Of a stretch of 15,041 nucleotides of DNA, positions 1-15,041 are shown piece after piece. Position numbers and translations under genes: made by a program. The DNA lies in IMG/VR virus record IMGVR_UViG_2713896784_000032, one strand, 5' to 3'. Numbering within the stretch: the stretch's first letter is position 1; the number at the start of each line of letters is the position of its first letter. Source of the DNA: a virus (lineage: Duplodnaviria; Heunggongvirae; Uroviricota; Caudoviricetes). The notes below the pieces were generated by a model, which was given only the letters and a program-made list of their open reading frames with translations, was not told the DNA's origin and made no database searches.

Positions 1-1002
1 TTACCCTCTATTGTCAAAAGGGTTCAATTCAACAGCAGCCTCTAAATGACCTGGAGCAAAATGCGCATAACGCATAGTCATTTTTATATCGCTATGCCCC
101 AGTATTTTTTGCAACACAAGAATATTTCCACCCCGCATCATAAAATGACTGGCAAACGTGTGACGTAGCACATGAGTTAATTGCCCATCAGGAAGCTCGA
201 TCTTCGCTCTCTTAATTGCAGCGTCAAAAGCCTCATAACATGGTGAAAATAGCGCTCCTCGTTTTTTAGGAAGCATAGCTTGCAATTGAGGTGAAATCGG
301 TACAGTGCGGTTCTTCTTTCCTTTAGTTTTAACAAATGTGATTCGACCGGGCAGTACTTGAGATTGCTTTAATCCTTCTGCTTCACTCCACCGAGCACCA
401 GTCGCAAGCCCAATACGGACAACAACCCCCAAATCTTTATTCCGTGACTCATCACACGCAATCAGAAGGCGTTCAATCTCATCTACATACAGAAACGCCA
501 GTTCCTTTTCTTCCTCACGAAACTTGCGAATACCAGTCAGGGGGTTTTCACCAGACCACTCCCCAAGGCGCTTCAGTTCGGCAAAAACAGCATGTAGATA
601 TGACTGCTCGCGATTAACGGTTGCTTCACTAAGTTTTTTCTTCCCCTTGGGATTCCATTCTCCTGATAGCCTTCTTTCCCGATAAGTAGCAAACATATTT
701 TTGTCAAACTGAGAAGCAAATGGATCTCCCAGCCTGGAACAAATCGCCTCAAGTTTGACTTTGCGCTCTGCACCAGAGGACAAGGTTTTACCGTACATCT
801 CAAACCAACGAGCAATCAACTCAGAAAGACGAGGACCAGAACCATCTTGAAACTCGTCTCCAACTCTACTATTCATTAAACGGCGCTCATAAGAGAGCGC
901 CTCACTTTTTGTCGCAAACTGTTTACGAATGCGTTTTCCCGATGCCCCGTAGGGATAACATTCACAAAGCCATTTACCTGATGGAATCTTACGAACCGAC
1001 AT
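1..1002 (-). CDS. int: Tyrosine recombinase (phage integrase), P2 Int-like
   Basis: 333-aa ORF. C-terminal region ...LTHVLRHTFASHFMMRGGNILVLQKILGHSDIKMTMRYAHF... carries the tyrosine-recombinase HxxR...Y signature. N-terminal GKRIRKQFATKSEA and central ITFVKTKGKKNRTVPIS match my recollection of phage P2 Int. Only 5 nt separate it from the upstream gene and it has no obvious Shine-Dalgarno, suggesting co-transcription. The ORF ends at the window edge, so any att site lies outside the window. Confidence 0.9.
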   Translation of the reverse strand: MSVRKIPSGKWLCECYPYGASGKRIRKQFATKSEALSYERRLMNSRVGDEFQDGSGPRLSELIARWFEMYGKTLSSGAERKVKLEAICSRLGDPFASQFDKNMFATYRERRLSGEWNPKGKKKLSEATVNREQSYLHAVFAELKRLGEWSGENPLTGIRKFREEEKELAFLYVDEIERLLIACDESRNKDLGVVVRIGLATGARWSEAEGLKQSQVLPGRITFVKTKGKKNRTVPISPQLQAMLPKKRGALFSPCYEAFDAAIKRAKIELPDGQLTHVLRHTFASHFMMRGGNILVLQKILGHSDIKMTMRYAHFAPGHLEAAVELNPFDNRG

Positions 1003-1007
1003 TTTAG

Positions 1008-1355
1008 TTACTTATCACATAAATCAAATGCAGCCTTAGTGACATCCCCCAGACTCTTTTTTAACCCTGGGGCGGCATCATTATCTAGCCAAAATGGATT
1101 ATTGTTATCTAACGGTAACGCACCAAATGTTTTACCTTTTATTCGAGCCAAACCTGTAAGTGCATATAACTTATTATCGTCAAAATTCATCACATAAGGA
1201 TTACCATCAAGACACTGTAATTGAACCTCATCAGTATTAAATGGCCATACCCCATTGAAACTCTCACGTTCAATAGTTTTAAAAGGCATTGCGACGGCGG
1301 AAAAAGAAAACATAGATAAAAAAGTAACTAATAGTTGAACCTTTTTTACTTTCAT
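1008..1355 (-). CDS. Small secreted protein, DUF2511/YebY-like (tentative family assignment)
   Basis: 115-aa ORF with an N-terminal signal-peptide-like segment (MKVKKVQLLVTFLSMFSFSAVA) and two cysteines (one near the middle, one near the C-terminus). The WPFNTDEVQLQC ... KKSLGDV ... LC pattern resembles what I recall of the E. coli YebY family. Shine-Dalgarno-like GAGGT lies upstream of the start. Confidence 0.55.
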   Translation of the reverse strand: MKVKKVQLLVTFLSMFSFSAVAMPFKTIERESFNGVWPFNTDEVQLQCLDGNPYVMNFDDNKLYALTGLARIKGKTFGALPLDNNNPFWLDNDAAPGLKKSLGDVTKAAFDLCDK

Positions 1356-1384
1356 ATCATTACCTCAATTTAGCTCAAGTAAGA

Positions 1385-2035
1385 TTACAAATTAAAAAAC
1401 GCCCTAGAAATGACACCGCCTACCAAAACCCCTACGCAGATAAAGAATATTATTTCTTTTGGATAAAGTCGGATTAATTCTGAAGCACGAAGTCGGACTT
1501 CTGGTAAGGTCGAACTCTCTATGTGGCTTGATGCCGATTGTTGCTCTAACCACGACAATGCAGACTGTAACTGAGAACGAGTAAGATCGTTTAAACGTCC
1601 TGTACCGAAATTGATATGGCAATACCGCAGAAGTTTTTGTCGAAGTCCACAGTCTTCACTGTTACGTAGTAATAAACTTACAAGAGCCTTACAGGCATCA
1701 TGATCTTTACATCGCTCAAGCATTGCATGCAGAAAACTCTCCGCTGTTTTATATTGATTTACTGTCATATCATCAATACCAGCTACACCAATCTCCGCAT
1801 GTACTTTTTGCCAAATAATAAACGCTTCAGTATTGCTAGCTTCTGCAATAGCAGCAACCAAGCTATTTAGCTCCTTACGCTGAGCCTTAAGCAAAGGGCG
1901 ATCGTCATCATCATTATTCGAAGGGATTGCGATATTGACGGTATGAGAACCATCATATCGCTCTATCTGAATATTCTTTTCGTGAAAATCACGCCCAGCA
2001 ACGCGATTGTTTGAACCGTTTGAGTTGACGGCCAT
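1385..2035 (-). CDS. Hypothetical tail-anchored membrane protein (cytoplasmic domain plus single C-terminal transmembrane helix), unknown function
   Basis: 216-aa ORF. Strong Shine-Dalgarno (GGGAGG) 5 nt upstream of the ATG, 15 nt after the stop of the upstream HTH gene. C-terminal hydrophobic stretch IIFFICVGVLVGGVISRAFF. An acidic DDDD run near the N-terminus. N-terminal motif NNRVAGRDF is shared with the C-terminus of the upstream HTH protein. Confidence 0.6.
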   Translation of the reverse strand: MAVNSNGSNNRVAGRDFHEKNIQIERYDGSHTVNIAIPSNNDDDDRPLLKAQRKELNSLVAAIAEASNTEAFIIWQKVHAEIGVAGIDDMTVNQYKTAESFLHAMLERCKDHDACKALVSLLLRNSEDCGLRQKLLRYCHINFGTGRLNDLTRSQLQSALSWLEQQSASSHIESSTLPEVRLRASELIRLYPKEIIFFICVGVLVGGVISRAFFNL

Positions 2036-2050
2036 GTCACCTCCCTACTA

Positions 2051-2455
2051 TCACCTACCCTTAGTTTCGTTATAGTCACGACCAGCGATACGGTTATTAC
2101 CACCAGAAATATTTAACTCACGTCCTGATGGCTGAGTTTCCTTTTCACTGATCGCACCTTTTAAAGCCCCAATCACCGCGTTTTTCACATCTAACGAAGC
2201 TGCTCGAAAGCGAGTAATCAATTCCTGCTCATCATCGTTATAAGTTTCAGGTGAGTGAATTCCCAACACAACATACTGAACATCAAGGCCAAAACGAGAC
2301 AGCGCTGCCAAATACGCAGCATCAGGAAAGCTATCTCCTTTCTCATATCTAAGCTGAGTTAGCTTTTTGACTCCACCAATGTCGCTCATGGCAACTTGAC
2401 TAAGTCCCAATCTTTCCCTTTCCTCACGCAACCGCCGACCAATATCATTTTTCAT
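2051..2455 (-). CDS. XRE-family helix-turn-helix transcriptional regulator; candidate immunity repressor (position equivalent to P2 C)
   Basis: 134-aa ORF. N-terminal region RLREERERLGLSQVAMSDIGGVKKLTQLRYEKGDSFPDAAYLAALSRFGLDV fits a Cro/C1-type HTH. First gene of the leftward operon, divergent from the Cox-like gene, as in the P2 C-int arrangement. Confidence 0.75.
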   Translation of the reverse strand: MKNDIGRRLREERERLGLSQVAMSDIGGVKKLTQLRYEKGDSFPDAAYLAALSRFGLDVQYVVLGIHSPETYNDDEQELITRFRAASLDVKNAVIGALKGAISEKETQPSGRELNISGGNNRIAGRDYNETKGR

Positions 2456-2530
2456 ACAAAAACCTTGACAGGTATCTTTTTTGATACCAAAATGATTTCA
2501 CGAGCTATTAGATGATCACAATATACCACT
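2456..2530. promoter_or_regulatory. Divergent promoter/operator (switch) region between the repressor-like gene and the rightward early operon
   Basis: 75-bp intergenic region between divergent starts. Consensus -35 hexamer TTGACA at 2465..2470 on the plus strand, immediately followed by a perfect palindrome GGTATC-N6-GATACC (2471..2488). A further GATACC copy lies at 2549..2554. Exact -10 elements are not assigned with confidence. Confidence 0.4.
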
Positions 2531-2737
2531 ATGAAACAAGTTCTTCACGATACCAGATCACGCATTCCGCGTAACACCGCCACAGGTCCAAGACTGGCAC
2601 TTCGGCTGTCCCTCGAGGAGCGAGCCGTCATTGATGAAATGGCAGCTAAAGAACAACGCTCATCCTCTAACATGGCGCGCATGATCTCCCTTCGCGGCCT
2701 AGAGCTAACCCAGAAAGAACAAAACAAATCTTCCTGA
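2531..2737 (+). CDS. Small ribbon-helix-helix-like DNA-binding protein (tentative)
   Basis: 68-aa ORF. The segment RLALRLSLEERAVIDEMAAKEQRSSSNMARMI looks like a beta-strand followed by a helix, as in CopG/Arc/MetJ-type proteins. No clear Shine-Dalgarno upstream, so the call is uncertain. Confidence 0.4.
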   Translation: MKQVLHDTRSRIPRNTATGPRLALRLSLEERAVIDEMAAKEQRSSSNMARMISLRGLELTQKEQNKSS

Positions 2738-2753
2738 TCAGGAGGCTAGTGGG

Positions 2754-2957
2754 ATGTCAGGTATAACCATCAATATCAATGTGAATGCCCCCAATGTATC
2801 CCTGCAGAAATATGCAGAGATAACAGGTATCCCTCTTAATACATGCAAAAAGATGTTGGCTGACGGTCGAATTATTATCCGCCCCAAACGCGCCAAAATG
2901 GAAAAGCCTGAAGTAAACCTTGTGGCGATGTTAAAAGACGCTTTGGCTAACAGCTAA
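2754..2957 (+). CDS. Cox/Apl-like small HTH protein (candidate excisionase and lysogeny-lysis switch regulator)
   Basis: 67-aa ORF with a strong Shine-Dalgarno (AGGAGG, 2740..2745). The segment VSLQKYAEITGIPLNTCKKMLADGRI resembles the HTH of P2 Cox as I recall it (IPYQEFAKLIGKSTGAVRRMIDKGKL). Its position divergent from the repressor matches P2/186 organisation. Confidence 0.55.
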   Translation: MSGITININVNAPNVSLQKYAEITGIPLNTCKKMLADGRIIIRPKRAKMEKPEVNLVAMLKDALANS

Positions 2958-2978
2958 AACAATGAACAGAGCACCATC

Positions 2979-3329
2979 ATGAAAAAAAACGCTAATAATC
3001 CATACTCCAAATTTCGTAATGGCGTAGAACGCCATGTACACCACGTCGCTACCAGTGCATCACGTAGTAACAGTCGCTATAACCTGAACGAGACGCATGC
3101 AACACCGGATGGCCACGCTGTAAAACAAATCGGCGAACATGCCTGGCTGATTGAGAAAGCTGGAATCGTGGTCCACAAATGCCCACGCAATCCGTTTACC
3201 GGGAACCGCATTTTTGCATTGAACTGCGGCGACAATCACTTCGGGCAGGATTTCACATTATACGAAGCACTTCGCACGGTTGATCGTCTGCTTCGCGGGC
3301 AAAGTTTTATTAAACAGGCTGATTTATAA
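2979..3329 (+). CDS. Hypothetical protein (early operon)
   Basis: 116-aa ORF, same strand and tightly packed with neighbours. No recognisable domain by eye. Confidence 0.45.
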   Translation: MKKNANNPYSKFRNGVERHVHHVATSASRSNSRYNLNETHATPDGHAVKQIGEHAWLIEKAGIVVHKCPRNPFTGNRIFALNCGDNHFGQDFTLYEALRTVDRLLRGQSFIKQADL

Positions 3330-3339
3330 CAGGTGCTTT

Positions 3340-3618
3340 ATGACCAAAGAGCATGCACAAGGTGTATTTATCCGTTTTATTGATTTTCGCGGTGAACTGT
3401 TATTACGCGCATCAGCCATTGACGGAATTGTTCCATCCGAAAAAAACGCAGCTACTTACGTTTATCTGAACGGTACGCGCCTGACTGTGGAGCTTCCGTA
3501 CCAGACCGTACGAGAAATCATTAGCGAAGCTGAAAAGGCTCGTCAGGTTAATGGCGATGAACCCTATATCGAAATTATTTGTATGGATTCAGAAGCTGAA
3601 ATTCAGAAAGCAGATTAA
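3340..3618 (+). CDS. Hypothetical protein (early operon)
   Basis: ATG at 3340, with AGGTG 4 nt upstream and 10 nt after the preceding stop. 92-aa product MTKEHAQGVFIRF.... The six-frame track begins this ORF at 3280, overlapping the previous gene; the internal start is preferred. Confidence 0.45.
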   Translation: MTKEHAQGVFIRFIDFRGELLLRASAIDGIVPSEKNAATYVYLNGTRLTVELPYQTVREIISEAEKARQVNGDEPYIEIICMDSEAEIQKAD

Positions 3619-3629
3619 AGGGCGTTGCG

Positions 3630-3872
3630 ATGGGCAAAGAATATAAAACTCTCATTAACAAAGCACCTGAACGATTTTATTTTCGCTTAAGTGCATCAGG
3701 CGCTCATGCTGAACGTGCAGCCCGTGACTCATTGACCAGGGCAATCCGGAGTTTGTATGACGTTGCTTTTTACGCTGATGATCTGGATGCACTTAACGAA
3801 CTTTCCGAGCTGATCTGTGCCGCAGAATGCGGGGAACACATTGAACCATATAAGCTGGGGAATATCGCATGA
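3630..3872 (+). CDS. Hypothetical protein (early operon)
   Basis: 80-aa ORF with an AAAGGG Shine-Dalgarno-like sequence upstream. No recognisable domain. Confidence 0.45.
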   Translation: MGKEYKTLINKAPERFYFRLSASGAHAERAARDSLTRAIRSLYDVAFYADDLDALNELSELICAAECGEHIEPYKLGNIA

Positions 3873-3982
3873 GTATATTTATCTCATGGCTTGTTCTGAT
3901 TATTTCGGTGGCCTGCGCCATTGGGATTATGCGAATTATTCATTCAGTAAAAAAGATTGAACGCTTTTTCACTGACAAATAA
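3869..3982 (+). CDS. Small hydrophobic peptide (37 aa), candidate single-pass membrane protein
   Basis: Not in the supplied ORF track (too short); read directly from the sequence. ATG at 3869 overlaps the TGA stop of the upstream gene (ATGA coupling). Translation MSIFISWLVLIISVACAIGIMRIIHSVKKIERFFTDK, stop TAA at 3980..3982. Hydrophobic helix followed by a basic tail. Confidence 0.3.
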   Translation: MSIFISWLVLIISVACAIGIMRIIHSVKKIERFFTDK

Positions 3983-4074
3983 CAGCTTAAACAGAACACC
4001 AGATTAAACCCGAAAACCTGAAAACTATCCGCATTCGCGGAGGTATTCGCACACGTAAATAACGGAGATATAAA

Positions 4075-4491
4075 ATGAACGCAAAAGAAAAAAATATTAT
4101 CAATACATTAAAAATAGTGTCAGCAGAGCAAGACAAGCTGTCCAGGGCAGCCCAGAAAGATAATCAACATATGGCAGCGCTTTACGCACTGACCATCGCA
4201 ATAGCCACCCCTGAAGCAGCCAAAGTTATTGAGGAACAGAGCAAAGAAATCGACACTCTTAAAACACAGTCAACAGTTGCAGCCATGAATCCGTCCAGCA
4301 TTGGACGCTGCATTTATATTCTTGGTTCAGCAATGATGCTGCAATACACCATTATTGCCGAACTGCACGGCAAATACCTGATAACGCCTTACCACACAAA
4401 AGAGTCAGAGCTTCTGACAAATCTCCGCCTGATAGAACGCTCTCAAGCTGTATTCATTGATGACGCGCAACGTGCCGTATTTAACGCATAG
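4075..4491 (+). CDS. Hypothetical protein (early operon)
   Basis: 138-aa ORF with a good Shine-Dalgarno (GGAG) 7 nt upstream. No recognisable domain. Confidence 0.5.
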   Translation: MNAKEKNIINTLKIVSAEQDKLSRAAQKDNQHMAALYALTIAIATPEAAKVIEEQSKEIDTLKTQSTVAAMNPSSIGRCIYILGSAMMLQYTIIAELHGKYLITPYHTKESELLTNLRLIERSQAVFIDDAQRAVFNA

Positions 4492-4514
4492 GGTTACTGG
4501 ACAAAGGGGGCGCA

Positions 4515-4718
4515 ATGGCAATTAAGCATTTTCCCGTCGTTCGCTTTACCTCCAGAGGGCGCGAATACGAGGTCGACGAACGCCTGATTACCACTATCGA
4601 CAAACATCGTTCGGAAAAGGATGCACACCACATCTACCTCACTGACGGCACTTACTTCTGCGCCACCAACGTGGCGCGAGTAAATCTTATCCGACAGGTA
4701 CAGGAGCCACGCAGATGA
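4515..4718 (+). CDS. Hypothetical protein (early operon)
   Basis: 67-aa ORF with AAAGGGGG upstream. Its stop overlaps the next start (ATGA). Confidence 0.45.
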   Translation: MAIKHFPVVRFTSRGREYEVDERLITTIDKHRSEKDAHHIYLTDGTYFCATNVARVNLIRQVQEPRR

Positions 4719-4981
4719 CCATTCTGGACTACATCGCTACTCATCCGGGGTGTAGCGGCGGAGAGATCGCCGCAGCACTGAATACCCCAACCACAGCCAT
4801 TAATGCTGAGTTACGCCGACTTTGGCGCGGCGGCTTAGTCATCAGAACAAACCGCAGCACAGGTGGTCGCGCTCGCAAAACAGGAGGCCAGGCTTCTTAC
4901 CACGTAAACCCGATGCCGTTCGGGTGTAGCAATCCACTTACTCACATGTTTAACCAGCTACTGAAGGAAGCCAGAGCATGA
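4715..4981 (+). CDS. Hypothetical protein, possibly a winged-helix-like DNA-binding protein
   Basis: 88-aa ORF, start overlapping the upstream stop, AGGAG upstream. The segment ATHPGCSGGEIAAALNTPTTAINAELRRLWRGGLV has a helix-turn-helix-like character. Assignment is tentative. Confidence 0.45.
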   Translation: MTILDYIATHPGCSGGEIAAALNTPTTAINAELRRLWRGGLVIRTNRSTGGRARKTGGQASYHVNPMPFGCSNPLTHMFNQLLKEARA

Positions 4982-5277
4982 GCACCATCAACCACCAGAA
5001 GCTACGCGAACTGGCATTTGCCCTGCAACGAATGGCAACGCCTCAAAAATTACTGGCATTTCGCGCAATGCTCTCGCCGTCTGCTGTGCTGGCACTGCTG
5101 GATCAGCTGGAGCACGCCAGAACCACGGCTCCTGCCATTCGCCTCACGCTCCATCATGAAATCGCTGATTTCTGCGCAACGCTGGGGGCACCTGGCGAAC
5201 CGGAAACGCCGGAAGCAATGCAGCAAGAGCTGCTGCAACGCATCGATAACGTTTTTGATTTTTTTCTGAACCAGTAA
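4978..5277 (+). CDS. Hypothetical protein (last gene of early operon segment)
   Basis: 99-aa ORF, start overlapping the upstream stop (ATGA), followed by a non-coding structured region and terminator. Confidence 0.45.
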   Translation: MSTINHQKLRELAFALQRMATPQKLLAFRAMLSPSAVLALLDQLEHARTTAPAIRLTLHHEIADFCATLGAPGEPETPEAMQQELLQRIDNVFDFFLNQ

Positions 5278-5400
5278 GAAACCAGAACATGCACACACAA
5301 AAAAACCGCTTGCCATGCCGCAATCGGTCAGGTTACATTTCCGCTGCACCTCATAAAACGGGTGCCGGGATTCTCAACCCGATACAGAGCAAAGCGCATA

Positions 5401-5420
5401 ACCGCGCTAGCGGTTTTTTT
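5401..5420 (+). terminator. Rho-independent terminator-like hairpin plus T-run
   Basis: ACCGC-GCTA-GCGGT hairpin (5401..5414) followed by seven T residues (5414..5420), downstream of the 4978..5277 gene. Confidence 0.5.
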
Positions 5421-5599
5421 GTGCGTACTGTATTGCCACGTCTTTTTCGCGTCAGAATTATGGCGGGGCGTACGGGGCCGACTTCGGTCGGGCCGGATTC
5501 TTTGCTCTCCGGTGTTGAGAACCCTGTACGTCTCGCCACCCCGAGATTCTCAACTCTGGATGGTGAGTTATTTCTATCACCGAGCAAAGAGGCCACACC

Positions 5600-5830
5600 A
5601 TGGCAGACCGCAAACAGCACCGCGCTATCGCGGAGCGTCGTCACATCCAGACTGAAATCAACCGCAGACTTTCCCGCGCATCACGCGTCGCGCAAATCAT
5701 GCACATCAATATGCTGCATGAGCGCAGCCACGCACTATCAAACATTTATTCCGCCTCTGTTTTCAGCTATCTGGCGGATGATCTGCACGAGTTTCAACAG
5801 CTCATCCAGCAGCAAAACAAACTCCATTAA
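5600..5830 (+). CDS. Hypothetical small basic protein
   Basis: 76-aa ORF with AGAGG 7 nt upstream of the ATG. Protein-like composition (MADRKQHRAIAERRHIQTEINRRL...). Preferred over the overlapping 205-aa low-complexity ORF 5289..5906. Confidence 0.4.
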   Translation: MADRKQHRAIAERRHIQTEINRRLSRASRVAQIMHINMLHERSHALSNIYSASVFSYLADDLHEFQQLIQQQNKLH

Positions 5831-5902
5831 TTCCTGTTCCGGGCCTTTCCTGCACCTTGCGGCGGGAGGCCTTCGCACATCTGTAACAAGAGGATTGCCG
5901 CA

Positions 5903-6268
5903 ATGATTCTCGCCAACGACTTTCTTGAATACCTGCTCAACACAGAACGTGATCTTGCCGCTCGCGTGCGTGATCGTTATGACATGTACCTGAAATCCCT
6001 GCCTGTACCGCAGCTCGCTGACGGAAAGATTGTTATTGATGGTCGCTACATGATTGACAGCCACGAGGGAAATTACAGGCTTTACCGCATTGAAGGTGGC
6101 ACCCCGTCCGTTATTGGCATTTACCAGCGCCCATCCTCTGCAATCGTCGATGTGATTGCCGACAGCATCCGCATCACACATCGCCATGCCGACACAGAAG
6201 ACACCGTGCTGGAAATTCAGCGGCTGGCTACAGCCTGCCGCGACACCCTGAATGGCATGACGAAGTAA
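5903..6268 (+). CDS. Hypothetical protein immediately upstream of the replication initiator
   Basis: 121-aa ORF with AGAGGA upstream. Stops 6 nt before the rep gene start, so probably co-transcribed with it. Confidence 0.5.
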   Translation: MILANDFLEYLLNTERDLAARVRDRYDMYLKSLPVPQLADGKIVIDGRYMIDSHEGNYRLYRIEGGTPSVIGIYQRPSSAIVDVIADSIRITHRHADTEDTVLEIQRLATACRDTLNGMTK

Positions 6269-6274
6269 ATCACT

Positions 6275-9097
6275 ATGACGGCAGAGTACATCAGGGACTG
6301 GCAACAACCGCGCCACGCAGTGGGGCGTGAAGGAACGGGGATCCCCGCTCCTGAATCCGCGCTTTCCTCCTGGCTGGATGCCTACCGGGTAGAGAACGAG
6401 CGCCGCCAGGAAATGGCTGATGCGGCGTTCTCCGCAACGCCGCTGGGCAACCTGATTAATAAAAGCCTGGACGCACAGGAAAAACAGGACAAAACCATCA
6501 CACTGGCAGGAGACGCCAGAAAACAGGCACGCGGTGCGGTGGATGAAGCCATGGCCTCGCTGCGCCTGCTGCCGTCCTATCTGCGCGATCCGCTTATTCG
6601 CCACCTCTCCTTCCTGCGCAAAAAACAGGAAGCCGATCGTCAGAAAGGCAAAAAGAGCTGGCAGGCTGAACGCTACGCGCGCGGAAACCTGCGCAAAATA
6701 TTCGAACGTCTGGAGCGCACCGATCACCGCTGGCTGACACAGGGTTATCGCTCCCTTGCCGGACGCGAACGCCTGGACGATTTGCTTTACCTGCCGCAGC
6801 TCAACAAACACCAGATACAGACGCTGGCCACCATGACGGCGGCGATGTTCAGCAGCACCTTCGAAAAACTCTGCGATGGCTTTGGCGCGACCGATGGCGA
6901 ACTGACCATGGATGTAACGCTGAAGGCGTATCAGATGCTGGCCCGCATGGCGTTACACCTGCACGCCATGCCTCCACATTATGACGCACTGACAACAGAC
7001 AAAGACCGGAGGAACGAACCGGACACGGAGCTGCTGCCGGGCGCAATCCTTCGCCTGACCTGTGCGGAATGGTGGAAACGCAAACTGTGGCTGTTACGTT
7101 GCGAGTGGAGAGAAGAACAACTCCGCGCCGCCTGTCTGGTTTCCAGAAAAACATCGCCCTATCTGAGCCAGGACGCGTTAAGCGAGTTTCGCGCACAGCG
7201 CGAGAAAACACGCGATTTCCTGAAAAGTTTCATGCTGGAAAACGAAGACGGGTTCACGATTGATCTCGAGACAGTGTATTACGCGGGAGTAAGTAACCCG
7301 GTTCACCGTAAGGCAGAAATGATGGCCACCATGAAGGGGCTGGAACTTCTGGCCGAAGCCCGTGGCGACAAAGCGGTGTTTCTGACTGTCACCTGCCCGT
7401 CAAAATACCACGCTACAACAGAGAACGGTCATCCGAATCCCAAATGGAACGGGGCCACCATGCGCGACTCCAGCGATTACCTGGTTAACACGTTTTTTGC
7501 GGCGGTCCGCAAGAAACTGAACCGCGACGGCCTGCGCTGGTATGGCATCCGCACGGTGGAGCCTCACCATGACGGCACCGTGCACTGGCATATGATGGTC
7601 TTTGCTCATCCGGAAGAAATCGACACCATTGTGTCCCACACCCGCGATATTGCCATTCAGGAAGATCGTCACGAGCTGGGCGATGATATTACTCCGCGCT
7701 TTAAGGCGGAGTATGTCGACGGCTCAAAAGGCACGCCAACCAGCTACATCGCCACCTACATCGGAAAAAACCTGGACAGCCGCGCCGTGGATGGCATCGA
7801 CCCGAAAACAGGCAAACCACGCGTTGACCACGAAACCGGAAAATCAATGACCGAGAGCGTGGAACGCGCCATTGGCTGGGCGCGCCTTCACCGGGTCCGC
7901 CAGTTCCAGTTCTTTGGCATCCCCTCCCGTCAGGTGTGGCGTGAACTGCGTCGCCTTGCCAGCCAGATGGCACGCAACCCGGAAGGCCCGCAACGGCTGA
8001 AGGATGACGCAATGGATGCGGTTCTTGCTGCCGCTGATGCCGGATGTTTTACCACCTACATTGAGAAACAGGGAGGCGTACTTGTTCCACGCAAGGACTA
8101 CCTGATTCGCACCGCCTACGACCTCGCAGATGAGCTGAACGATTACGGCGAACAGAGCGTACAGATTTACGGGATCTGGTCACCACTCATCGGGGAATCC
8201 TCCCGTGTGTGCACGCACCCGGATAACTGGAAGCTGGTAAGACGTAAACCGGGAGTAGAAGACAGCGCCCGCGAAAATGGTTTTGACCTTCAGGGCGGCC
8301 CTGCCGCCCCTTGGACTCGTGGCAATAACTGTCCCCGTGTACAGGAAACGGACAACAACGGGACAGAACAGCCGGAAGAACGGCCAGCACCGTGGCCGCA
8401 GCTTCCTGACGGCGTTGACGTGAACGAATGGATGCGCTCACTGAAACGGCACGAACGCCGGGCGCTGATGCGTTCGCTTCGTGACAAACAGGCAAAAAAC
8501 AGCAGTGATGAAATGCAGAGCTGGACACAGAGCCGCAAACAGCAGCGGCCTTTGCCTGATAACCACGAATTACTCGCTAAAGAATGGCGGGAGTCTGCTG
8601 AATCTCTCGGCCTGCATATCGGTGAACAACAGATGCAGCACCTGTTACGGGGCGGCAGTCTGTACGTTGACGGCAGCATCATTGCACCGCAGGGATTTGA
8701 AATTGTACGCAAACCGGATACCCGCCCGGACAGCCGAATCACGCAGCTCTGGCAGCGCCTGAGCCGTAATCATGGCGTAAGCAGCACGGAGATCCGCCAT
8801 AACCCGGTCGCCAGCTATCTGGCACAGCTGGGGGCATCAGACCCTGAAGCCGCCGCACGCCTGGCATCCACACTTCAGCAGGACCAGAACACCATGAAAA
8901 CACCCGTTACCGTGCTTTCTGACATGCTGCGCGCCATCCGCGACGCAGAGCACGCACAGAGAATCAGTGAAACCACTGAACGCGCCAGCCGCAAAGCAGA
9001 CCTGCTGCGGGGTGGCCTGACCAGTGGAAACAAAAAACAGACAGAAACGGGACTCACAAATCCCGTAAATGAGCAAAAAACGCGCCGCGATATATGA
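6275..9097 (+). CDS. Rolling-circle replication initiation endonuclease, phage P2 gpA-like (HUH superfamily)
   Basis: 940-aa ORF. Contains VTCPSKYH, RTVEPHHDGTVHWHMMVF (HUH-type metal-binding motif, about 7561..7600) and YIATYIGKNLD (paired Tyr YxxxY, about 7744..7775). These match the conserved core of P2 gene A protein as I recall it (TLTAPSKYH ... VEPHHDGTPHWHMM ... YIAKYISKNIDG). Longer than P2 A (about 760 aa). Confidence 0.85.
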   Translation: MTAEYIRDWQQPRHAVGREGTGIPAPESALSSWLDAYRVENERRQEMADAAFSATPLGNLINKSLDAQEKQDKTITLAGDARKQARGAVDEAMASLRLLPSYLRDPLIRHLSFLRKKQEADRQKGKKSWQAERYARGNLRKIFERLERTDHRWLTQGYRSLAGRERLDDLLYLPQLNKHQIQTLATMTAAMFSSTFEKLCDGFGATDGELTMDVTLKAYQMLARMALHLHAMPPHYDALTTDKDRRNEPDTELLPGAILRLTCAEWWKRKLWLLRCEWREEQLRAACLVSRKTSPYLSQDALSEFRAQREKTRDFLKSFMLENEDGFTIDLETVYYAGVSNPVHRKAEMMATMKGLELLAEARGDKAVFLTVTCPSKYHATTENGHPNPKWNGATMRDSSDYLVNTFFAAVRKKLNRDGLRWYGIRTVEPHHDGTVHWHMMVFAHPEEIDTIVSHTRDIAIQEDRHELGDDITPRFKAEYVDGSKGTPTSYIATYIGKNLDSRAVDGIDPKTGKPRVDHETGKSMTESVERAIGWARLHRVRQFQFFGIPSRQVWRELRRLASQMARNPEGPQRLKDDAMDAVLAAADAGCFTTYIEKQGGVLVPRKDYLIRTAYDLADELNDYGEQSVQIYGIWSPLIGESSRVCTHPDNWKLVRRKPGVEDSARENGFDLQGGPAAPWTRGNNCPRVQETDNNGTEQPEERPAPWPQLPDGVDVNEWMRSLKRHERRALMRSLRDKQAKNSSDEMQSWTQSRKQQRPLPDNHELLAKEWRESAESLGLHIGEQQMQHLLRGGSLYVDGSIIAPQGFEIVRKPDTRPDSRITQLWQRLSRNHGVSSTEIRHNPVASYLAQLGASDPEAAARLASTLQQDQNTMKTPVTVLSDMLRAIRDAEHAQRISETTERASRKADLLRGGLTSGNKKQTETGLTNPVNEQKTRRDI

Positions 9098-9173
9098 AGC
9101 GCGCACAAAACAGGCAAAAGCGGGATTTAAAAATCCTGTAACCGATTAATTAATCAACATAAGGAAAAGCGAC
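9030..9173. promoter_or_regulatory. Candidate promoter/centromere-like (parC-like) region upstream of parM
   Basis: Cluster of palindromes and repeats: ACGGGA-N8-TCCCGT (about 9047..9066), near-palindrome GGATTTAAAAATCC (9123..9136), AT palindrome ATTAATTAAT (about 9144..9153), and recurring CAAAAAAC/CAAAACAG. Overlaps the 3' end of the rep gene. No clean iteron array was identified. Confidence 0.3.
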
Positions 9174-10133
9174 ATGAAAATTTGTATCGACGACGGCTCC
9201 ACCAACATCAAGCTGGCATGGACTGAGAACGGCGAACGCCGCAACGCCATCAGCCCGAACAGCTTCAAGTCGGAATGGTCTGCGCCATTCGGTGGCACGC
9301 AGCCCGCGAACTACATGCTTGATGGCGTGCGCTATGGTTTTGATCCGGTCAGCGATCGCTTTGTCCAGACGACCGACACGCAATACCAGTACAGCGATGT
9401 GAATGTAATTGCCATTCATCACGCGCTGGTCAAATCAGGCATCACACCACAGGAAGTGGATGTGGTTGTCACCCTGCCACTGAGCGAGTATTTCGATACA
9501 AACGCACAGCCGGACATGGCCAACATCAACCGCAAAAAAGCGAACGTCATGCGCCCGGTGGAGTACCAGAACGGCGAAGCATTCACTATCCGTAACGTAC
9601 GGGTTATGCCTGAATCCATTCCTGCTGGCTTTAAGGCACTGGCTGACATGAGTCCGTTTGAATCCCTGCTGATTGTGGATTTGGGCGGAACCACGCTGGA
9701 TGTGGCAAAGGTTCAGGGGCAACTGGCAGGTATCAGCCAGGTGTTTTGCGATCCACACGTAGGCGTTTCTCTGATGGCCGATGCCGTACTGTCGGTGATG
9801 GCCACTAACGGTATGCGCACCAGTCACCACATCGCCAATACCATTATCGAACATCGCCATGATGAAGCCTGGCTGCGCCAGCACATCCACAATGACGCGC
9901 ATTACGCCAGCCTGATGGCGGTTATTCGTGAAAAGGAAGAAACACTGAAACAACGCGTGATCCGCGCGCTGGCGGTTTTTTCGGGTTACGGGCGGGTGAT
10001 GGTTGTCGGTGGCGGGGCGGAGATTGTGGCAACCGCTATCCGCGAAGCCTGCGGAGTTAATGCGACTTTCATCGCGGACGGGGTGCCACAGTTTGCTCTG
10101 GTTAATGGGTTGTACGCAATGAACAAGGAGTAA
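9174..10133 (+). CDS. parM: Actin-like plasmid segregation ATPase ParM (StbA)
   Basis: 319-aa ORF. N-terminus MKICIDDGSTNIKLAW plus SPNSF, YSDVNVIAIHHAL, VMPESIPAG, LIVDLGGTTLD and VVGGGAE motifs align closely with plasmid R1 ParM/StbA as I recall it. Shine-Dalgarno AAGGA upstream. Confidence 0.85.
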   Translation: MKICIDDGSTNIKLAWTENGERRNAISPNSFKSEWSAPFGGTQPANYMLDGVRYGFDPVSDRFVQTTDTQYQYSDVNVIAIHHALVKSGITPQEVDVVVTLPLSEYFDTNAQPDMANINRKKANVMRPVEYQNGEAFTIRNVRVMPESIPAGFKALADMSPFESLLIVDLGGTTLDVAKVQGQLAGISQVFCDPHVGVSLMADAVLSVMATNGMRTSHHIANTIIEHRHDEAWLRQHIHNDAHYASLMAVIREKEETLKQRVIRALAVFSGYGRVMVVGGGAEIVATAIREACGVNATFIADGVPQFALVNGLYAMNKE

Positions 10134-10137
10134 ACCA

Positions 10138-10452
10138 ATGACGACACCAACCAGACGGATAAGTTTCTATCTGAAGCCCGCCGCCGTCAAGAGTGAACAG
10201 GAGGCGTGCAATTACCTCGATAGCCTGCCAGCCTCCGAACGCAGCCGCGCGCAACGCGCGGCCTTTCTGGCTGGGCTAGCACTCATAAAGCGCAACCCAG
10301 CATTTGCCTACTGGATGGCCGAATGGCCAGAGGACAACCTCCCCTTCAATACCGTTAGCATCAAGGAAACATACCAGGCTAATCAGCCTAGCGGAGTTGA
10401 ATGCAATTTTTATAAAATAAAAAAGAATATTCAGACCTTATTCCCAGAATAA
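10138..10452 (+). CDS. parR: Partition adaptor ParR (StbB)-like DNA-binding protein
   Basis: 104-aa ORF starting 4 nt after the parM stop, with a strong Shine-Dalgarno (AAGGAG). N-terminal region RISFYLKP...YLDSLPASERSRAQRAAFLAGLAL resembles R1 ParR (DSIPQGERSRLNRAALTAGLAL). Confidence 0.7.
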   Translation: MTTPTRRISFYLKPAAVKSEQEACNYLDSLPASERSRAQRAAFLAGLALIKRNPAFAYWMAEWPEDNLPFNTVSIKETYQANQPSGVECNFYKIKKNIQTLFPE

Positions 10453-10546
10453 TCTGATAATTGTATGTGAACTAATAAAATACATTGTCATACGAGTCAC
10501 CTGTACTCCCTGTTGATGCCAGCAGTTTTGCTTCTTTTAGTCGCTC

Positions 10547-10596
10547 NNNNNNNNNNNNNNNNNNNNNNNNNNNNNNNNNNNNNNNNNNNNNNNNNN
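10547..10596. other. Run of 50 ambiguous bases (N), probable gap or masked placeholder
   Basis: Directly visible in the sequence; lies inside the IS3-family remnant. Confidence 0.99.
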
Positions 10597-10886
10597 ACAT
10601 AGACGAAGCCCTGCCATGTGCTGACGTAAGTAAAATCAGCCACCCACAGCTGGTCAGGACGTTCTGCCACGAACTGACGGTTTACGCGGTCGCCTGCGGA
10701 AACGGCTTTCCGGCTGACGGTAGTACGGACCTTTTTACCCCGGAGAACACCGGCAAGTCCCATAACCGCCATGAGGCGCGCCACTGTACATCTGGCCACC
10801 CTGATACCTTCGCGTAACAACTGGCGCCAGACTTTACGCACACCGTACACCTGATGATTTTCATCGTATACGCGCTGTATCTCTCT

Positions 10887-10936
10887 NNNNNNNNNNNNNN
10901 NNNNNNNNNNNNNNNNNNNNNNNNNNNNNNNNNNNN
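10887..10936. other. Run of 50 ambiguous bases (N), probable gap or masked placeholder
   Basis: Directly visible in the sequence; lies at the OrfA/OrfB junction region of the IS3-family remnant. Confidence 0.99.
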
Positions 10937-11053
10937 AAGCGGAAGCCTGGCGAAGGATATCGTTACTGCGGCGCAGTTCACGATTTTCACGTTCCAGCCA
11001 TAAAGTTATGTTCCTGACGTATGTATTCGTCCCGCAGGAATCAACCAACTGAT

Positions 11054-11443
11054 TTATCTGAATTTATCATGCCCCTCAACTCTGATTTTATTCATCTTGT
11101 TTACCGAATCGGGTATATCTGATAACTGTCCCGATAAGACTTTTTGTTTCGCCAGCATAATCTCTTTTTCAAGCTTTTGAAGTTCTTTTATATAGTCATT
11201 CTTCCCTTCTTCATCAGCCGGTGAAATGCTCTCAGGAAGACGCTTCATTGACTCATCTACAGCATCATCCATTCTGTCAAGAGCTTCAAGAAGCTCCTTT
11301 TTATCCATTGATGACTGAAGTACACTCATATTCCTTGCAAGAACTTGCATGCTTTCATCAAGTTCTTCTGCCACTGTAATCCCCCCACACAAAAAATATA
11401 ATGCCATACCACAGCTGATTATAACTTTATTGCTTTTCTGCAT
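11054..11443 (-). CDS. cybC: Soluble periplasmic cytochrome b562 family protein
   Basis: 129-aa ORF with a signal-peptide-like N-terminus. The mature region EELDESMQVLARNMSVL ... VEGHDKFR aligns with E. coli cytochrome b562 (ADLEDNMETLNDNLKVI ... NAYHQKYR), including the Met and C-terminal His heme ligands. Shine-Dalgarno GGAG 5 nt upstream. Lies downstream of the catalase-peroxidase on the same strand. Confidence 0.75.
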   Translation of the reverse strand: MQKSNKVIISCGMALYFLCGGITVAEELDESMQVLARNMSVLQSSMDKKELLEALDRMDDAVDESMKRLPESISPADEEGKNDYIKELQKLEKEIMLAKQKVLSGQLSDIPDSVNKMNKIRVEGHDKFR

Positions 11444-11455
11444 AATTTCTCCTTC

Positions 11456-11478
11456 ATGAGGGAGGTGCCCTCCCTCAT
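11456..11478 (-). other. Intercistronic stem-loop between the catalase-peroxidase and cytochrome b562 genes
   Basis: Perfect 10-bp stem (ATGAGGGAGG / CCTCCCTCAT) with a 3-nt loop in the 43-nt gap between the two genes. On the transcribed (minus) strand it is not followed by a U-run, so it is more likely an mRNA structural element than a terminator. Confidence 0.35.
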
Positions 11479-11486
11479 CAGTTTTA

Positions 11487-13712
<2,226 letters not shown>

Positions 13713-13873
13713 TTAAGGGAAATTCGCATGTTGTATACAAAAGTCAACTTTATTGATGCAACAGGATATACCTATTGCTGGGATAGATACTACAGACAAA
13801 AAATACTAAGGGGTTCCAAGCCGCAACTGACGATGCCGTTGAGTGCTGCGCAGACCTGAATATTCCCTTCTTT

Positions 13874-14059
13874 GTGGATGTCAGAAACAAAAAGCTGGTC
13901 TTCTGGTTTGTACGTGTTGATGACGAAGGGTATCCTGAAATAGCCCGCTGCACGGAGCGGGAGTTTGCGACCATTCTTGCCGGTATCAGCGCCGGCGGCA
14001 TGTACTGCCCGGAGTGTGGCACGGTTCACTGGCCGGACGGAGTTCCCCCGCCCTTCTGA
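13874..14059 (+). CDS. Small ORF translationally coupled to the IS91-family transposase gene (possible IS91 accessory ORF)
   Basis: 61-aa ORF containing CPECG. Its TGA stop (14057..14059) overlaps the ATG (14059..14061) of the downstream transposase reading frame. IS91 is known to carry a small ORF upstream of tnpA; homology could not be verified by eye. Confidence 0.3.
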   Translation: MDVRNKKLVFWFVRVDDEGYPEIARCTEREFATILAGISAGGMYCPECGTVHWPDGVPPPF

Positions 14060-14460
14060 TGCTTCCCCGTTTTGCCGACATTTTTCAGCAGGGAAACCGC
14101 TGGCTTAACTGGCTGGAGAAACAACCGGAAGGTTCAGTGCGTCCGGTAGTCATTGAGTCTGTGACAAAAATCATGGCCTGCGGGACCACGCTGATGGGGT
14201 ACACACAGTGGTGCTGTTCATCTCCGGACTGCAGCCACATAAAAAAGGTCTGCTTCCGGTGTAAAAGTCGCTCCTGCCCGCACTGCGGAGTGAAGGCTGG
14301 CGCACAGTGGATACAGTATCTGCTGAGTCTGGTTCCCGACTGTCCGTGGCAGCATATTGTGTTCACACTTCCCTGCCAGTACTGGTCCCTGGTGTTCCAC
14401 AACCGGTGGTTACTGGCAGAGATGAGCCGCATTGCTGCGGATGTGATACAGGAAATCTGC
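14059..14460 (+). mobile_element. IS91-family (rolling-circle, HUH) transposase gene, N-terminal fragment only (3'-truncated)
   Basis: Translation MLPRFADIFQQGNRWLNWLEKQ...KIMACGTTLMGYTQWCCSSPDCSHIKKVCFRCKSRSCPHCGVKAGAQWIQ...QHIVFTLP has the N-terminal zinc-binding CxxC...CxxC region typical of IS91/ISCR transposases. Homology ends near 14460, where IS3-family sequence begins. Confidence 0.7.
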
Positions 14461-15041
14461 CGCCAGGCAGATGTGCGACTACGAACTCGAACCACAATCT
14501 GCCAGTTGCGCCAAATCTGCTGAACCAGACGTTCGCTCCTGCAGCACCAAATCAGGTCTGGGTGGCGGACCTGACGTATGTTGCCACACAGGAGGGATGG
14601 TTGTACCTCGCTGGCATCAAAGATGTTTATACGTGCGAAATTGTCGGCTACGCCATGGGAGAGCGCATGACAAAAGAGCTGACAGGTAAAGCCCTGTTTA
14701 TGGCGCTCAGGAGCCAGCGCCCACCTGCCGGGCTAATCCACCACTCTGATCGAGGTTCACAGTACTGCGCATACGATTACCGGGTCATACAGGAGCAGTT
14801 TGGTCTGAAAACATCAATGTCGCGTAAAGGTAACTGTTACGACAACGCTCCGATGGAAAGCTTCTGGGGAACGCTGAAAAATGAGAGCCTGAGCCACTAT
14901 CGTTTTAATAACCGGGATGAAGCCATCTCAGTAATACGGGAATACATTGAGATTTTCTACAATCGTCAGCGTCGTCACTCTCGTCTGGGGAATATCTCCC
15001 CGGCAGCCTTCAGGGAAAAATATCATCAGATGGCTGCTTAA
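14460..15041 (+). mobile_element. IS3-family transposase OrfB, C-terminal catalytic (DDE) portion; 5'-truncated element running to the window end
   Basis: Translation ...TTNSNHNLPVAPNLLNQTFAPAAPNQVWVADLTYVATQEGWLYLA...HHSDRGSQYCA...SRKGNCYDNAPMESFWGTLKNE...YNRQRRHSRLGNISPAAF shows the IS3-family DDE motifs. Stop codon TAA at 15039..15041. No OrfA or OrfB N-terminus upstream (IS91 sequence instead). Confidence 0.8.

Follow-up and report, generated by a model that had tools for sequence, protein, structure and literature searches.

Several phages and prophages carry RNA-based immunity switches, and the closest to the locus described here are the immI region of P1 and P7, the CI RNA of satellite P4, the CB RNA of N15 and the isrK region of the lambdoid prophage Gifsy-1. 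The CI RNA of P4 causes premature termination through the seqA and seqC sites (summarised in PMC4825925). In Gifsy-1, a short and a read-through isoform arise from one promoter, and the short RNA, IsrK, which is the type member of Rfam family RF01394, can activate the silent read-through mRNA (PMC4825925). A 15,041-nucleotide stretch of viral DNA (Caudoviricetes; IMG/VR record IMGVR_UViG_2713896784_000032), referred to below as the window, contains a region at positions 5296–5600 that very probably represents an IsrK–C4 antisense-RNA immunity cassette of the P1 immI, P4 CI and N15 CB type, situated in the early operon of a P2-like prophage.

An earlier reading of this DNA, made from its letters alone (the sequence-only reading), had suggested that the region might act through RNA, as an immunity or antisense factor like that of satellite P4, and the search against RNA-family covariance models that it proposed yielded two Rfam matches above the curated cut-offs. 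The suggestion is borne out by the P4 immunity region, which gives the same two families in the same order as the window (isrK, 60.8 bits; C4, 74.9 bits). The isrK and C4 elements also occur in the same order and spacing in P1, N15, a Yersinia phage and many lambdoid and Stx phages, and homology to Stx-converting phages runs from window position 5347 to 5573–5593, so that it takes in the RNA cassette but none of the sequence before it.

Two structured RNAs and their recognition sites

The first RNA matches the isrK model over all of its 77 positions (1–77, 63.0 bits) and consists of a pair of 5′ hairpins joined by a single-stranded linker to an intrinsic terminator at 5400–5420; its predicted fold (−24.2 kcal/mol, z = −2.7 against shuffled sequences) agrees with the model. 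The terminator-like hairpin at 5400–5415 with its following T-run, already noted in the sequence-only reading, was recovered by a terminator scan. A promoter scan places a promoter-like site so that it ends 6 nt before the first isrK base, with G5346 as the predicted start, and the −10 hexamer likewise ends 6 nt before the first base of the isrK model in all nine homologues compared (P4, P1, N15 and six other phages); the counterpart is annotated in the P1 record as P1c4, formerly P51b. At the level of sequence, the upstream promoter and 3′ intrinsic terminator by which an isrK RNA is recognised are both present. The alternative family c4-a1b1 (Rfam RF03163) scores 15.9 bits, below its gathering score of 46.7, and the isrK model is the better description of these nucleotides. 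A second sigma-70-like match (TTGCCA at 5433, 17-nt spacer, AATTAT at 5461) falls within the conserved stretch that separates IsrK from C4; as a promoter it was rejected, since its start would fall inside the C4 5′ stem, and it is left unexplained.

The second RNA matches the C4 model over positions 1–87 of 87 (E = 2.6e-14), and homology to the c4 RNA of P1, as annotated in that phage's record, predicts a mature species from about 5462 to 5540. It comprises a 17-bp acceptor-like closing stem, a UUCG hairpin at 5478–5491 and a second hairpin, and its minimum-energy fold (−47.6 kcal/mol, z = −4.9) equals the model structure. The acceptor-like stem carries a 3′ ...GCCACC tail, as in P1 c4; a scan for tRNA and tmRNA genes gave no match. 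The CCGAC-TTCG-GTCGG hairpin reported earlier is the first internal hairpin of C4. The sequence-only reading had placed this hairpin and one copy of TTCTCAAC together with the other signals of the region; the signals themselves are real, and both belong to the second RNA, C4, which had gone unrecognised as a unit.

The two RNAs are linked by short complementary sites, named a1, b1, b′, a′, a2 and b2 after the nomenclature of the P1 GenBank record. Each recognition element of C4 has a complementary copy both upstream and downstream along the one transcript, the a and b sites being exact matches of 8 and 9 nt, respectively. All of the strings reported earlier were found where they had been placed, including TTCTCAAC at 5371 and 5547 and its complement GTTGAGAA at 5514; these are the sole three copies in 15 kb, they fall within 184 bp, and three copies are reached in 5 of 200 shuffled sequences against an expectation of 0.56. 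The b sites form a second triplet that had escaped the earlier reading: GAGCAAAG is found at 5387 and again at 5582, with its complement in between at 5500, and the five copies present in the window (0.67 expected) were reached in none of 200 shuffles. In the predicted fold of the read-through RNA 5346–5625 (−110.5 kcal/mol, z = −4.4), a′ and b′ pair in cis with a2 and b2, hiding the Shine-Dalgarno sequence.

A further segment, the X box, lies directly 3′ of a2, is 7–9 nt long, and covaries with the 3′ strand of the C4 closing stem across P4, N15, PA2 and lambdoid copies, as seen in the pairings of GGUGGUGAG with CUCACCACC, of the P4 segments GGCGAUAGC with GCUAUCGCC and of the N15 segments GGUGGUAGC with GCUACCACC. 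Before processing, the X box could give the RNA an alternative hairpin with a2 displayed in the loop; in the window it is weak.

The gene that follows encodes a 76-aa protein matching the P4 epsilon family PF25738 (E = 1.1e-7), with 32% identity to P4 epsilon itself over 50 aa (BLASTP, E = 6e-9), and its RefSeq product name is "derepression protein". The features are collected in Table 1.

Table 1. Features of the cassette and its flanks, in window coordinates.
Feature	Position	Strand	Details
Left arm of long repeat, CACAAAAAAACCGCT	5296..5310	.	perfect 15-bp inverted repeat; partner 5409–5423
IsrK sigma-70 promoter, predicted	5310..5339	+	−35 TTGCCA 5310–15, 18-nt spacer, −10 TACATT 5334–39
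IsrK-like small RNA (P4 "seqA" region)	5346..5420	+	Rfam RF01394, 63 bits, cut-off 50
a1 site, UUCUCAAC	5371..5378	+	loop of IsrK hairpin 2; complementary to a′
b1 site, AGAGCAAAG	5386..5394	+	IsrK linker; complementary to b′; abuts candidate antiterminator hairpin
Candidate antiterminator hairpin	5393–97 with 5404–08	+	AGCGC with GCGCU; −7.9 kcal/mol; uses terminator 5′ arm
C4/CI-type antisense RNA	5456..5543	+	Rfam RF01695, 78.5 bits, cut-off 45
b′ recognition element, CUUUGCUCU	5500..5508	+	loop of C4 hairpin 2
a′ recognition element, GUUGAGAA	5514..5521	+	single-stranded C4 junction
a2 target, UUCUCAAC	5547..5554	+	7 nt past predicted C4 3′ end
X box, UGGUGAG	5561..5567	+	complementary to C4 closing-stem 3′ strand, 5530–36
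b2 target, (C)GAGCAAAGAG	5581..5591	+	core 5582–91; overlaps Shine-Dalgarno AAGAGG (5587–92) of the gene at 5600
76-aa epsilon-like "derepression protein" gene	5600..5830	+	Pfam PF25738, 31.9 bits, cut-off 27

Covariation and assortment of the recognition sites

Related loci were collected with the 76-aa protein as query; genome contigs gave only 3 loci, a viral collection being far richer, and the RNA cassette was present at all 83 loci obtained. An alignment of 44 distinct relatives (331-nt sequences), to which the following results refer, shows near-identity outside the six a/b sites, with the variation concentrated in those sites and a three-way covariation among them. Across the a1–a′ and b1–b′ helices, 96.3% of cells are paired and 184 cells have changed on both sides, with a covariation score of 0.653 compared with 0.121 in shuffled data (reached in 0 of 500 shuffles), and shifting the partners by 1–3 columns lowers the pairing to 28–59%. 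The a′–a2 and b′–b2 helices behave in the same manner (94.1% of cells paired; score 0.566 compared with 0.129, 0 of 500 shuffles). The internal stems of IsrK and C4 are paired in 98.2% of cells with a few compensatory changes, six pairs having changed on both sides; the long closing stem of C4 and the two hairpins inside it are thereby kept. G–U pairs are present in the a/b helices, which favours RNA pairing over DNA repeats bound by a protein, and b2 lies on the Shine-Dalgarno sequence of the downstream gene in 44 of 44 relatives. Judged from this alignment, the six a/b sites are selected to pair. The covariation analysis proposed in the sequence-only reading thus finds covariation at the a/b sites; the arms of its long inverted repeat are invariant.

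The same alignment bears on two open reading frames (ORFs) that cross the region and are not in RefSeq, where the annotation is blank over 5278–5599. The ORF at 5289–5906 exists, and the earlier doubt about it as a gene was well placed: its ATG is missing in 11 of the 44 relatives, it is interrupted in 2 more, indels of 1–2 nt cross it, and its variation follows the RNA pairing. The ORF at 5362–5655 was rejected as a gene on similar grounds, namely 1–2-nt indels among the relatives and variation that tracks RNA pairing.

Nine functional b alleles and five a alleles are seen in 12 combinations. The mean energy of the b′–b2 duplex is −14.6 kcal/mol for cognate and −6.6 kcal/mol for non-cognate partners, an example of a non-cognate C4 allele being the CUUGUGUAG/CUGCGAA type, and the corresponding means for a′–a2 are −10.1 and −4.1 kcal/mol. 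On this sequence evidence, the a and b sequences appear to act as a specificity code, and since they differ between otherwise near-identical phages, these phages would be hetero-immune at the RNA level. Immunity types were defined as clusters of the integrase-to-DUF4761 region from longer flanks, which gave 15 types over 70 loci. Every immunity cluster with at least two members has at least two C4 types, and the C4 type of the window is found with seven immunity clusters; the C4 types assort independently of the immunity clusters, and the RNA code therefore represents a separately assorting specificity module. The epsilon-like protein shows no co-variation with the repressor region, and one and the same epsilon-like sequence can accompany as many as four immunity clusters, which makes it unlikely that the protein is fitted to a single repressor.

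Comparison with related switches and genomic setting

The order of elements, with a promoter followed by a1, b1, a terminator-like hairpin, C4, a2, b2 and the first gene, is that of P1/P7 immI. As in those phages, one recognition element occupies a hairpin loop and the other a junction within the same fold, and there the specificity alleles make related phages hetero-immune (PMC12197685). The P1 record annotates b2 at the ribosome-binding site of icd, and here b2 lies on that of the epsilon-like gene. The two systems differ in what is controlled: in P1, the leader ORF icd is coupled to the antirepressor gene ant, whereas here the 76-aa epsilon-like gene follows directly, and no leader ORF of the icd, eta or orf45 type was found between C4 and the gene at 5600. 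They also differ in the upstream element, which in P1 scores 35.1 bits with isrK (below the cut-off) and passes c4-a1b1, the converse of the 63 and 15.9 bits obtained here, and in the phage that carries them, P1 being a plasmid prophage and the phage here a P2-like myovirus.

P4 shares the three-copy site layout (seqA, CI RNA with seqB, seqC), with the second downstream site on a Shine-Dalgarno sequence, and has a homologous derepression protein downstream, followed by a replication gene. In P4, however, a spacer of about 107 nt and an additional eta-like ORF (MATTLTP...) separate CI from epsilon; a MAT... ORF between C4 and the effector is conserved in P4 and the lambdoid copies. The epsilon proteins share just 32% identity, the a/b alleles differ, the 121-aa gene downstream of the epsilon-like gene has no similarity to P4 orf151, and the replication protein is of the P2 A type, whereas that of P4 is the alpha primase.

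The Gifsy-1 arrangement (isrK–STnc1160/orf45–anrP) resembles the present one in that a processed C4-like RNA and an antirepressor come after IsrK (PMC4825925). Gifsy-1 is a lambdoid prophage, in which regulation proceeds via orf45, with translational coupling to AnrP, and from there reaches the AntQ antiterminator, and none of these proteins is encoded here. N15 (CB RNA–antirepressor) has isrK and C4 in the same order on a linear plasmid-prophage backbone, with gp32, gp31 and Ant downstream. The compared stretch of N15 (1502–1589) shares the a allele of the window (GUUGAGAA/UUCUCAAC, with a′ at 5514–5521), and its b allele differs; recognition alleles are therefore shared across unrelated phage backbones. 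In several lambdoid annotations (mEp460, Salmonella 118970_sal3), a long "Rha/antirepressor" coding sequence is drawn across the isrK–C4 cassette, and its start codon is probably mis-called. The cassette described here differs from both P1 immI and P4 in having no leader ORF, direct control of an epsilon-like gene, and a place in a P2-like early operon just upstream of gene A.

Positions 1–10998 of the window match, at 100% identity, a P2-like prophage found in E. coli O157:H7 (EC4115, TW14359 and others), and the region shares about 90% identity with P88 and with other Xuanwuvirus phages. The gene order begins with an integrase, a minus-strand helix-turn-helix repressor (134 aa, 2051–2455), the early operon and a gap of 320 bp, and continues with the 76-aa "derepression protein", the 121-aa ORF, the 940-aa gene A replication endonuclease, and ParM and StbB. 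The prophage is P2-like and of the P88/Sp13 type, its layout matching that published for the Sakai prophage Sp13. Sp13 is a P2-like prophage that is without morphogenesis genes and has a P4 epsilon-like gene; mitomycin C induces it even though no peptidase motif is present in its repressor, and the epsilon-like gene has been suspected as the cause (PMC2669165). Homology among the relatives breaks at about 5297 and differing genes precede the cassette in different phages, so the position just upstream of it (5277–5298) acts like a slot for variable cargo.

At 9174–10452, the P2-like prophage contains a partition pair of plasmid type, ParM/StbB, as does phage P88. In the segment that follows this pair (10484–15041), the prophage ends at an IS3-family element, and the rest of the window codes for cytochrome b562, a 736-aa catalase-peroxidase, an IS91-type zinc-binding transposase domain and an IS3 integrase core. 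The whole window was contiguous in none of the complete E. coli genomes searched, and this may therefore be an assembly join at the insertion-sequence element.

Proposed mechanism, alternative readings and meaning

In the mechanism proposed for the cassette, transcription from the predicted promoter would start at about 5346, and most transcripts would end at the terminator to give an IsrK-like RNA of about 75 nt that carries a1 and b1. From read-through transcripts, C4 would be cut out as in P1 and P4, with RNase P making its 5′ end by analogy with the homologues. The released C4 would show b′ in a hairpin loop and a′ in the junction, and both could pair with a2 and b2 on any transcript reaching that far. 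Pairing at b2, which covers the Shine-Dalgarno sequence, would block translation of the epsilon-like gene in trans, and polarity would probably also lower the expression of the 121-aa gene and of replication gene A. The a1 and b1 sites in IsrK would offer C4 a second binding place, where its binding may either increase termination at 5420 by blocking an antiterminator hairpin or, when IsrK is abundant, lead to titration of C4.

Several points weigh against this account. For the ends of the transcripts, the cut by RNase P and the binding of Hfq, it draws on the homologues. The covariation leaves the outcome of pairing undecided between translational block, termination and activation. The locus has no leader ORF, unlike P1, P4 and Gifsy-1, and translational coupling in the same way is therefore impossible. 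Since no co-variation links the epsilon-like protein to the repressor region, the target of this protein is uncertain. A clade-specific 15-bp inverted repeat, discussed below, stands outside what the model explains.

That termination in the manner of P4 is the main output, with C4 on nascent a1/b1 blocking an antiterminator and forcing transcription to stop at 5420 while a2/b2 are secondary, is a serious possibility that falls a little short of an even chance. When the nascent IsrK RNA is cut before the 3′ arm of the terminator, it folds in 10 of 10 homologues as a hairpin (−5.4 to −7.9 kcal/mol) that uses the terminator 5′ arm and abuts b1, its arms varying between lineages yet still pairing; C4 bound at b1 would, in this modelled fold, disfavour the candidate antiterminator, which supports a termination component. 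The a1/b1 sites also co-vary with C4 as tightly as do a2/b2. The overlap of b1 with the antiterminator 5′ arm is only 2 nt, however, and the position of b2 on the Shine-Dalgarno sequence in every homologue, including P4, would be hard to explain were translation irrelevant.

The Gifsy-1 model, by which the short RNA turns on the epsilon-like protein and prophage induction, is held more tentatively. For the Salmonella homologue, this mode of action was demonstrated with compensatory mutations and 30S binding assays (PMC4825925). Here, the full-length fold hides the Shine-Dalgarno sequence in cis and IsrK has perfect copies of the C4 targets, and the inducibility of Sp13 by mitomycin C, for which an epsilon-like gene was suspected (PMC2669165), also speaks for this model. 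Activation in Gifsy-1, on the other hand, runs via orf45 and translational coupling, and orf45 is missing here; furthermore, co-expression of the C4-like RNA strengthened rather than relieved the IsrK-mediated growth arrest (PMC4825925). Both the termination reading and the Gifsy-1 reading are compatible with the cassette mechanism set out above, and the three are not mutually exclusive.

The sequence-only reading had proposed a discrete RNA of about 120 nt closed by a long inverted repeat and ending at the U-run. Its repeat is perfect: AAAAAAACCGCT at 5299–5310 is the exact reverse complement of 5409–5420, and this 12-mer or its complement occurs in the window at 5299 and 5409 only (0.01 expected; two copies in 0 of 200 shuffles). 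The length given for it was too short, the arms being 15 bp at 5296–5310 and 5409–5423. The proposed RNA did not hold, as the RNA predicted to end at the U-run is about 75 nt long and begins at about 5346. The left arm occupies about −50 to −36 of the IsrK promoter, with an A7 tract at about −47 to −41; from this place ahead of the −35 box, it should be missing from IsrK transcripts.

In its present form, the proposal of an RNA of about 120–130 nt closed by these arms, or its variant in which the left arm is an antiterminator specific to transcripts from the upstream early promoter, is very improbable. The 15-bp match is far from chance, the left arm is kept in 44 of 44 relatives even where the upstream gene has been replaced, since homology begins at about 5297, and an RNA begun further upstream folds with the 15-bp helix (−51.1 kcal/mol, z = −5.2). 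The promoter downstream of that arm is nevertheless common to the homologues. No covariation was seen, as all 12 pairs tested are invariant in the 44 relatives, and because the arms never vary this test is uninformative. No counterpart longer than 6 nt was found in P4, ASU11, PA2, Stx2, mEp460, Sal3, YpM39 or N15; the P4, P1, N15 and lambdoid cassettes have nothing comparable. Known antiterminators capture the 5′ arm of the terminator, whereas the helix would have to capture the 3′ arm, which is kinetically unfavourable. The left arm also fits a different structure, on the minus strand.

That structure is a terminator-like hairpin read from 5327 to 5299 and followed by U7 (−11.4 kcal/mol), which overlaps the IsrK −35 box; the left arm supplies its 3′ half and its U-tail. 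In the commonest variant (C-to-U), it retains −9.2 kcal/mol through a U–G pair that can form on that strand only; the plus-strand hairpin at 5305–5328, which has just −4.5 kcal/mol in the same variant, was rejected. The promoter scan found no leftward promoter. Being upstream of the promoter, invariant in the clade and missing in other lineages, the left arm falls outside the conserved switch, and the long repeat is regarded as real, clade-specific and unexplained.

The remaining suggestion, which takes the repeats for DNA targets of a regulatory or initiator protein or assigns them to an origin, can hardly be credited in spite of short repeats just upstream of the replication gene and small DNA-binding proteins nearby in the window, since the copies are related by complementarity with G–U tolerated, act as base-pairing partners in the loops and junctions of two conserved RNAs that pass curated covariance models, and change freely between near-identical phages whose neighbouring proteins are constant, and since the origin in the P2 family lies inside gene A.

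The kind of switch described here is already well known, and the principle of such switches is unchanged by it. No paper was found that describes the cassette in P88/Sp13-type phages, and Sp13 is unmentioned in the main text of the O157 Hfq-CRAC study. An extended reading, which we regard as unlikely, would hold that the IsrK–C4 switch rather than repressor cleavage decides the induction of P88/Sp13-type prophages, that the nine-by-five a/b code is an RNA barcode independent of the repressor, and that the 15-bp helix or the leftward hairpin adds a further layer. Were it true, a rise in IsrK would titrate C4 and free both the epsilon-like derepressor and gene A, explaining how Sp13 can be induced by mitomycin C without a cleavable repressor, and the 15-bp helix or the leftward terminator-like hairpin would treat transcripts from the early promoter and from the IsrK promoter differently.

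The cassette fills an annotation blank in a prophage carried by many E. coli O157:H7 genomes, and offers a concrete route for the unexplained mitomycin C inducibility of Sp13. It also indicates that the P4-type module of RNA immunity plus epsilon lives in phages of P4's own helper family. The nine b and five a alleles, reshuffled on a near-constant backbone, provide clean natural evidence that both target pairs are used, and point to RNA-level hetero-immunity under diversifying selection.

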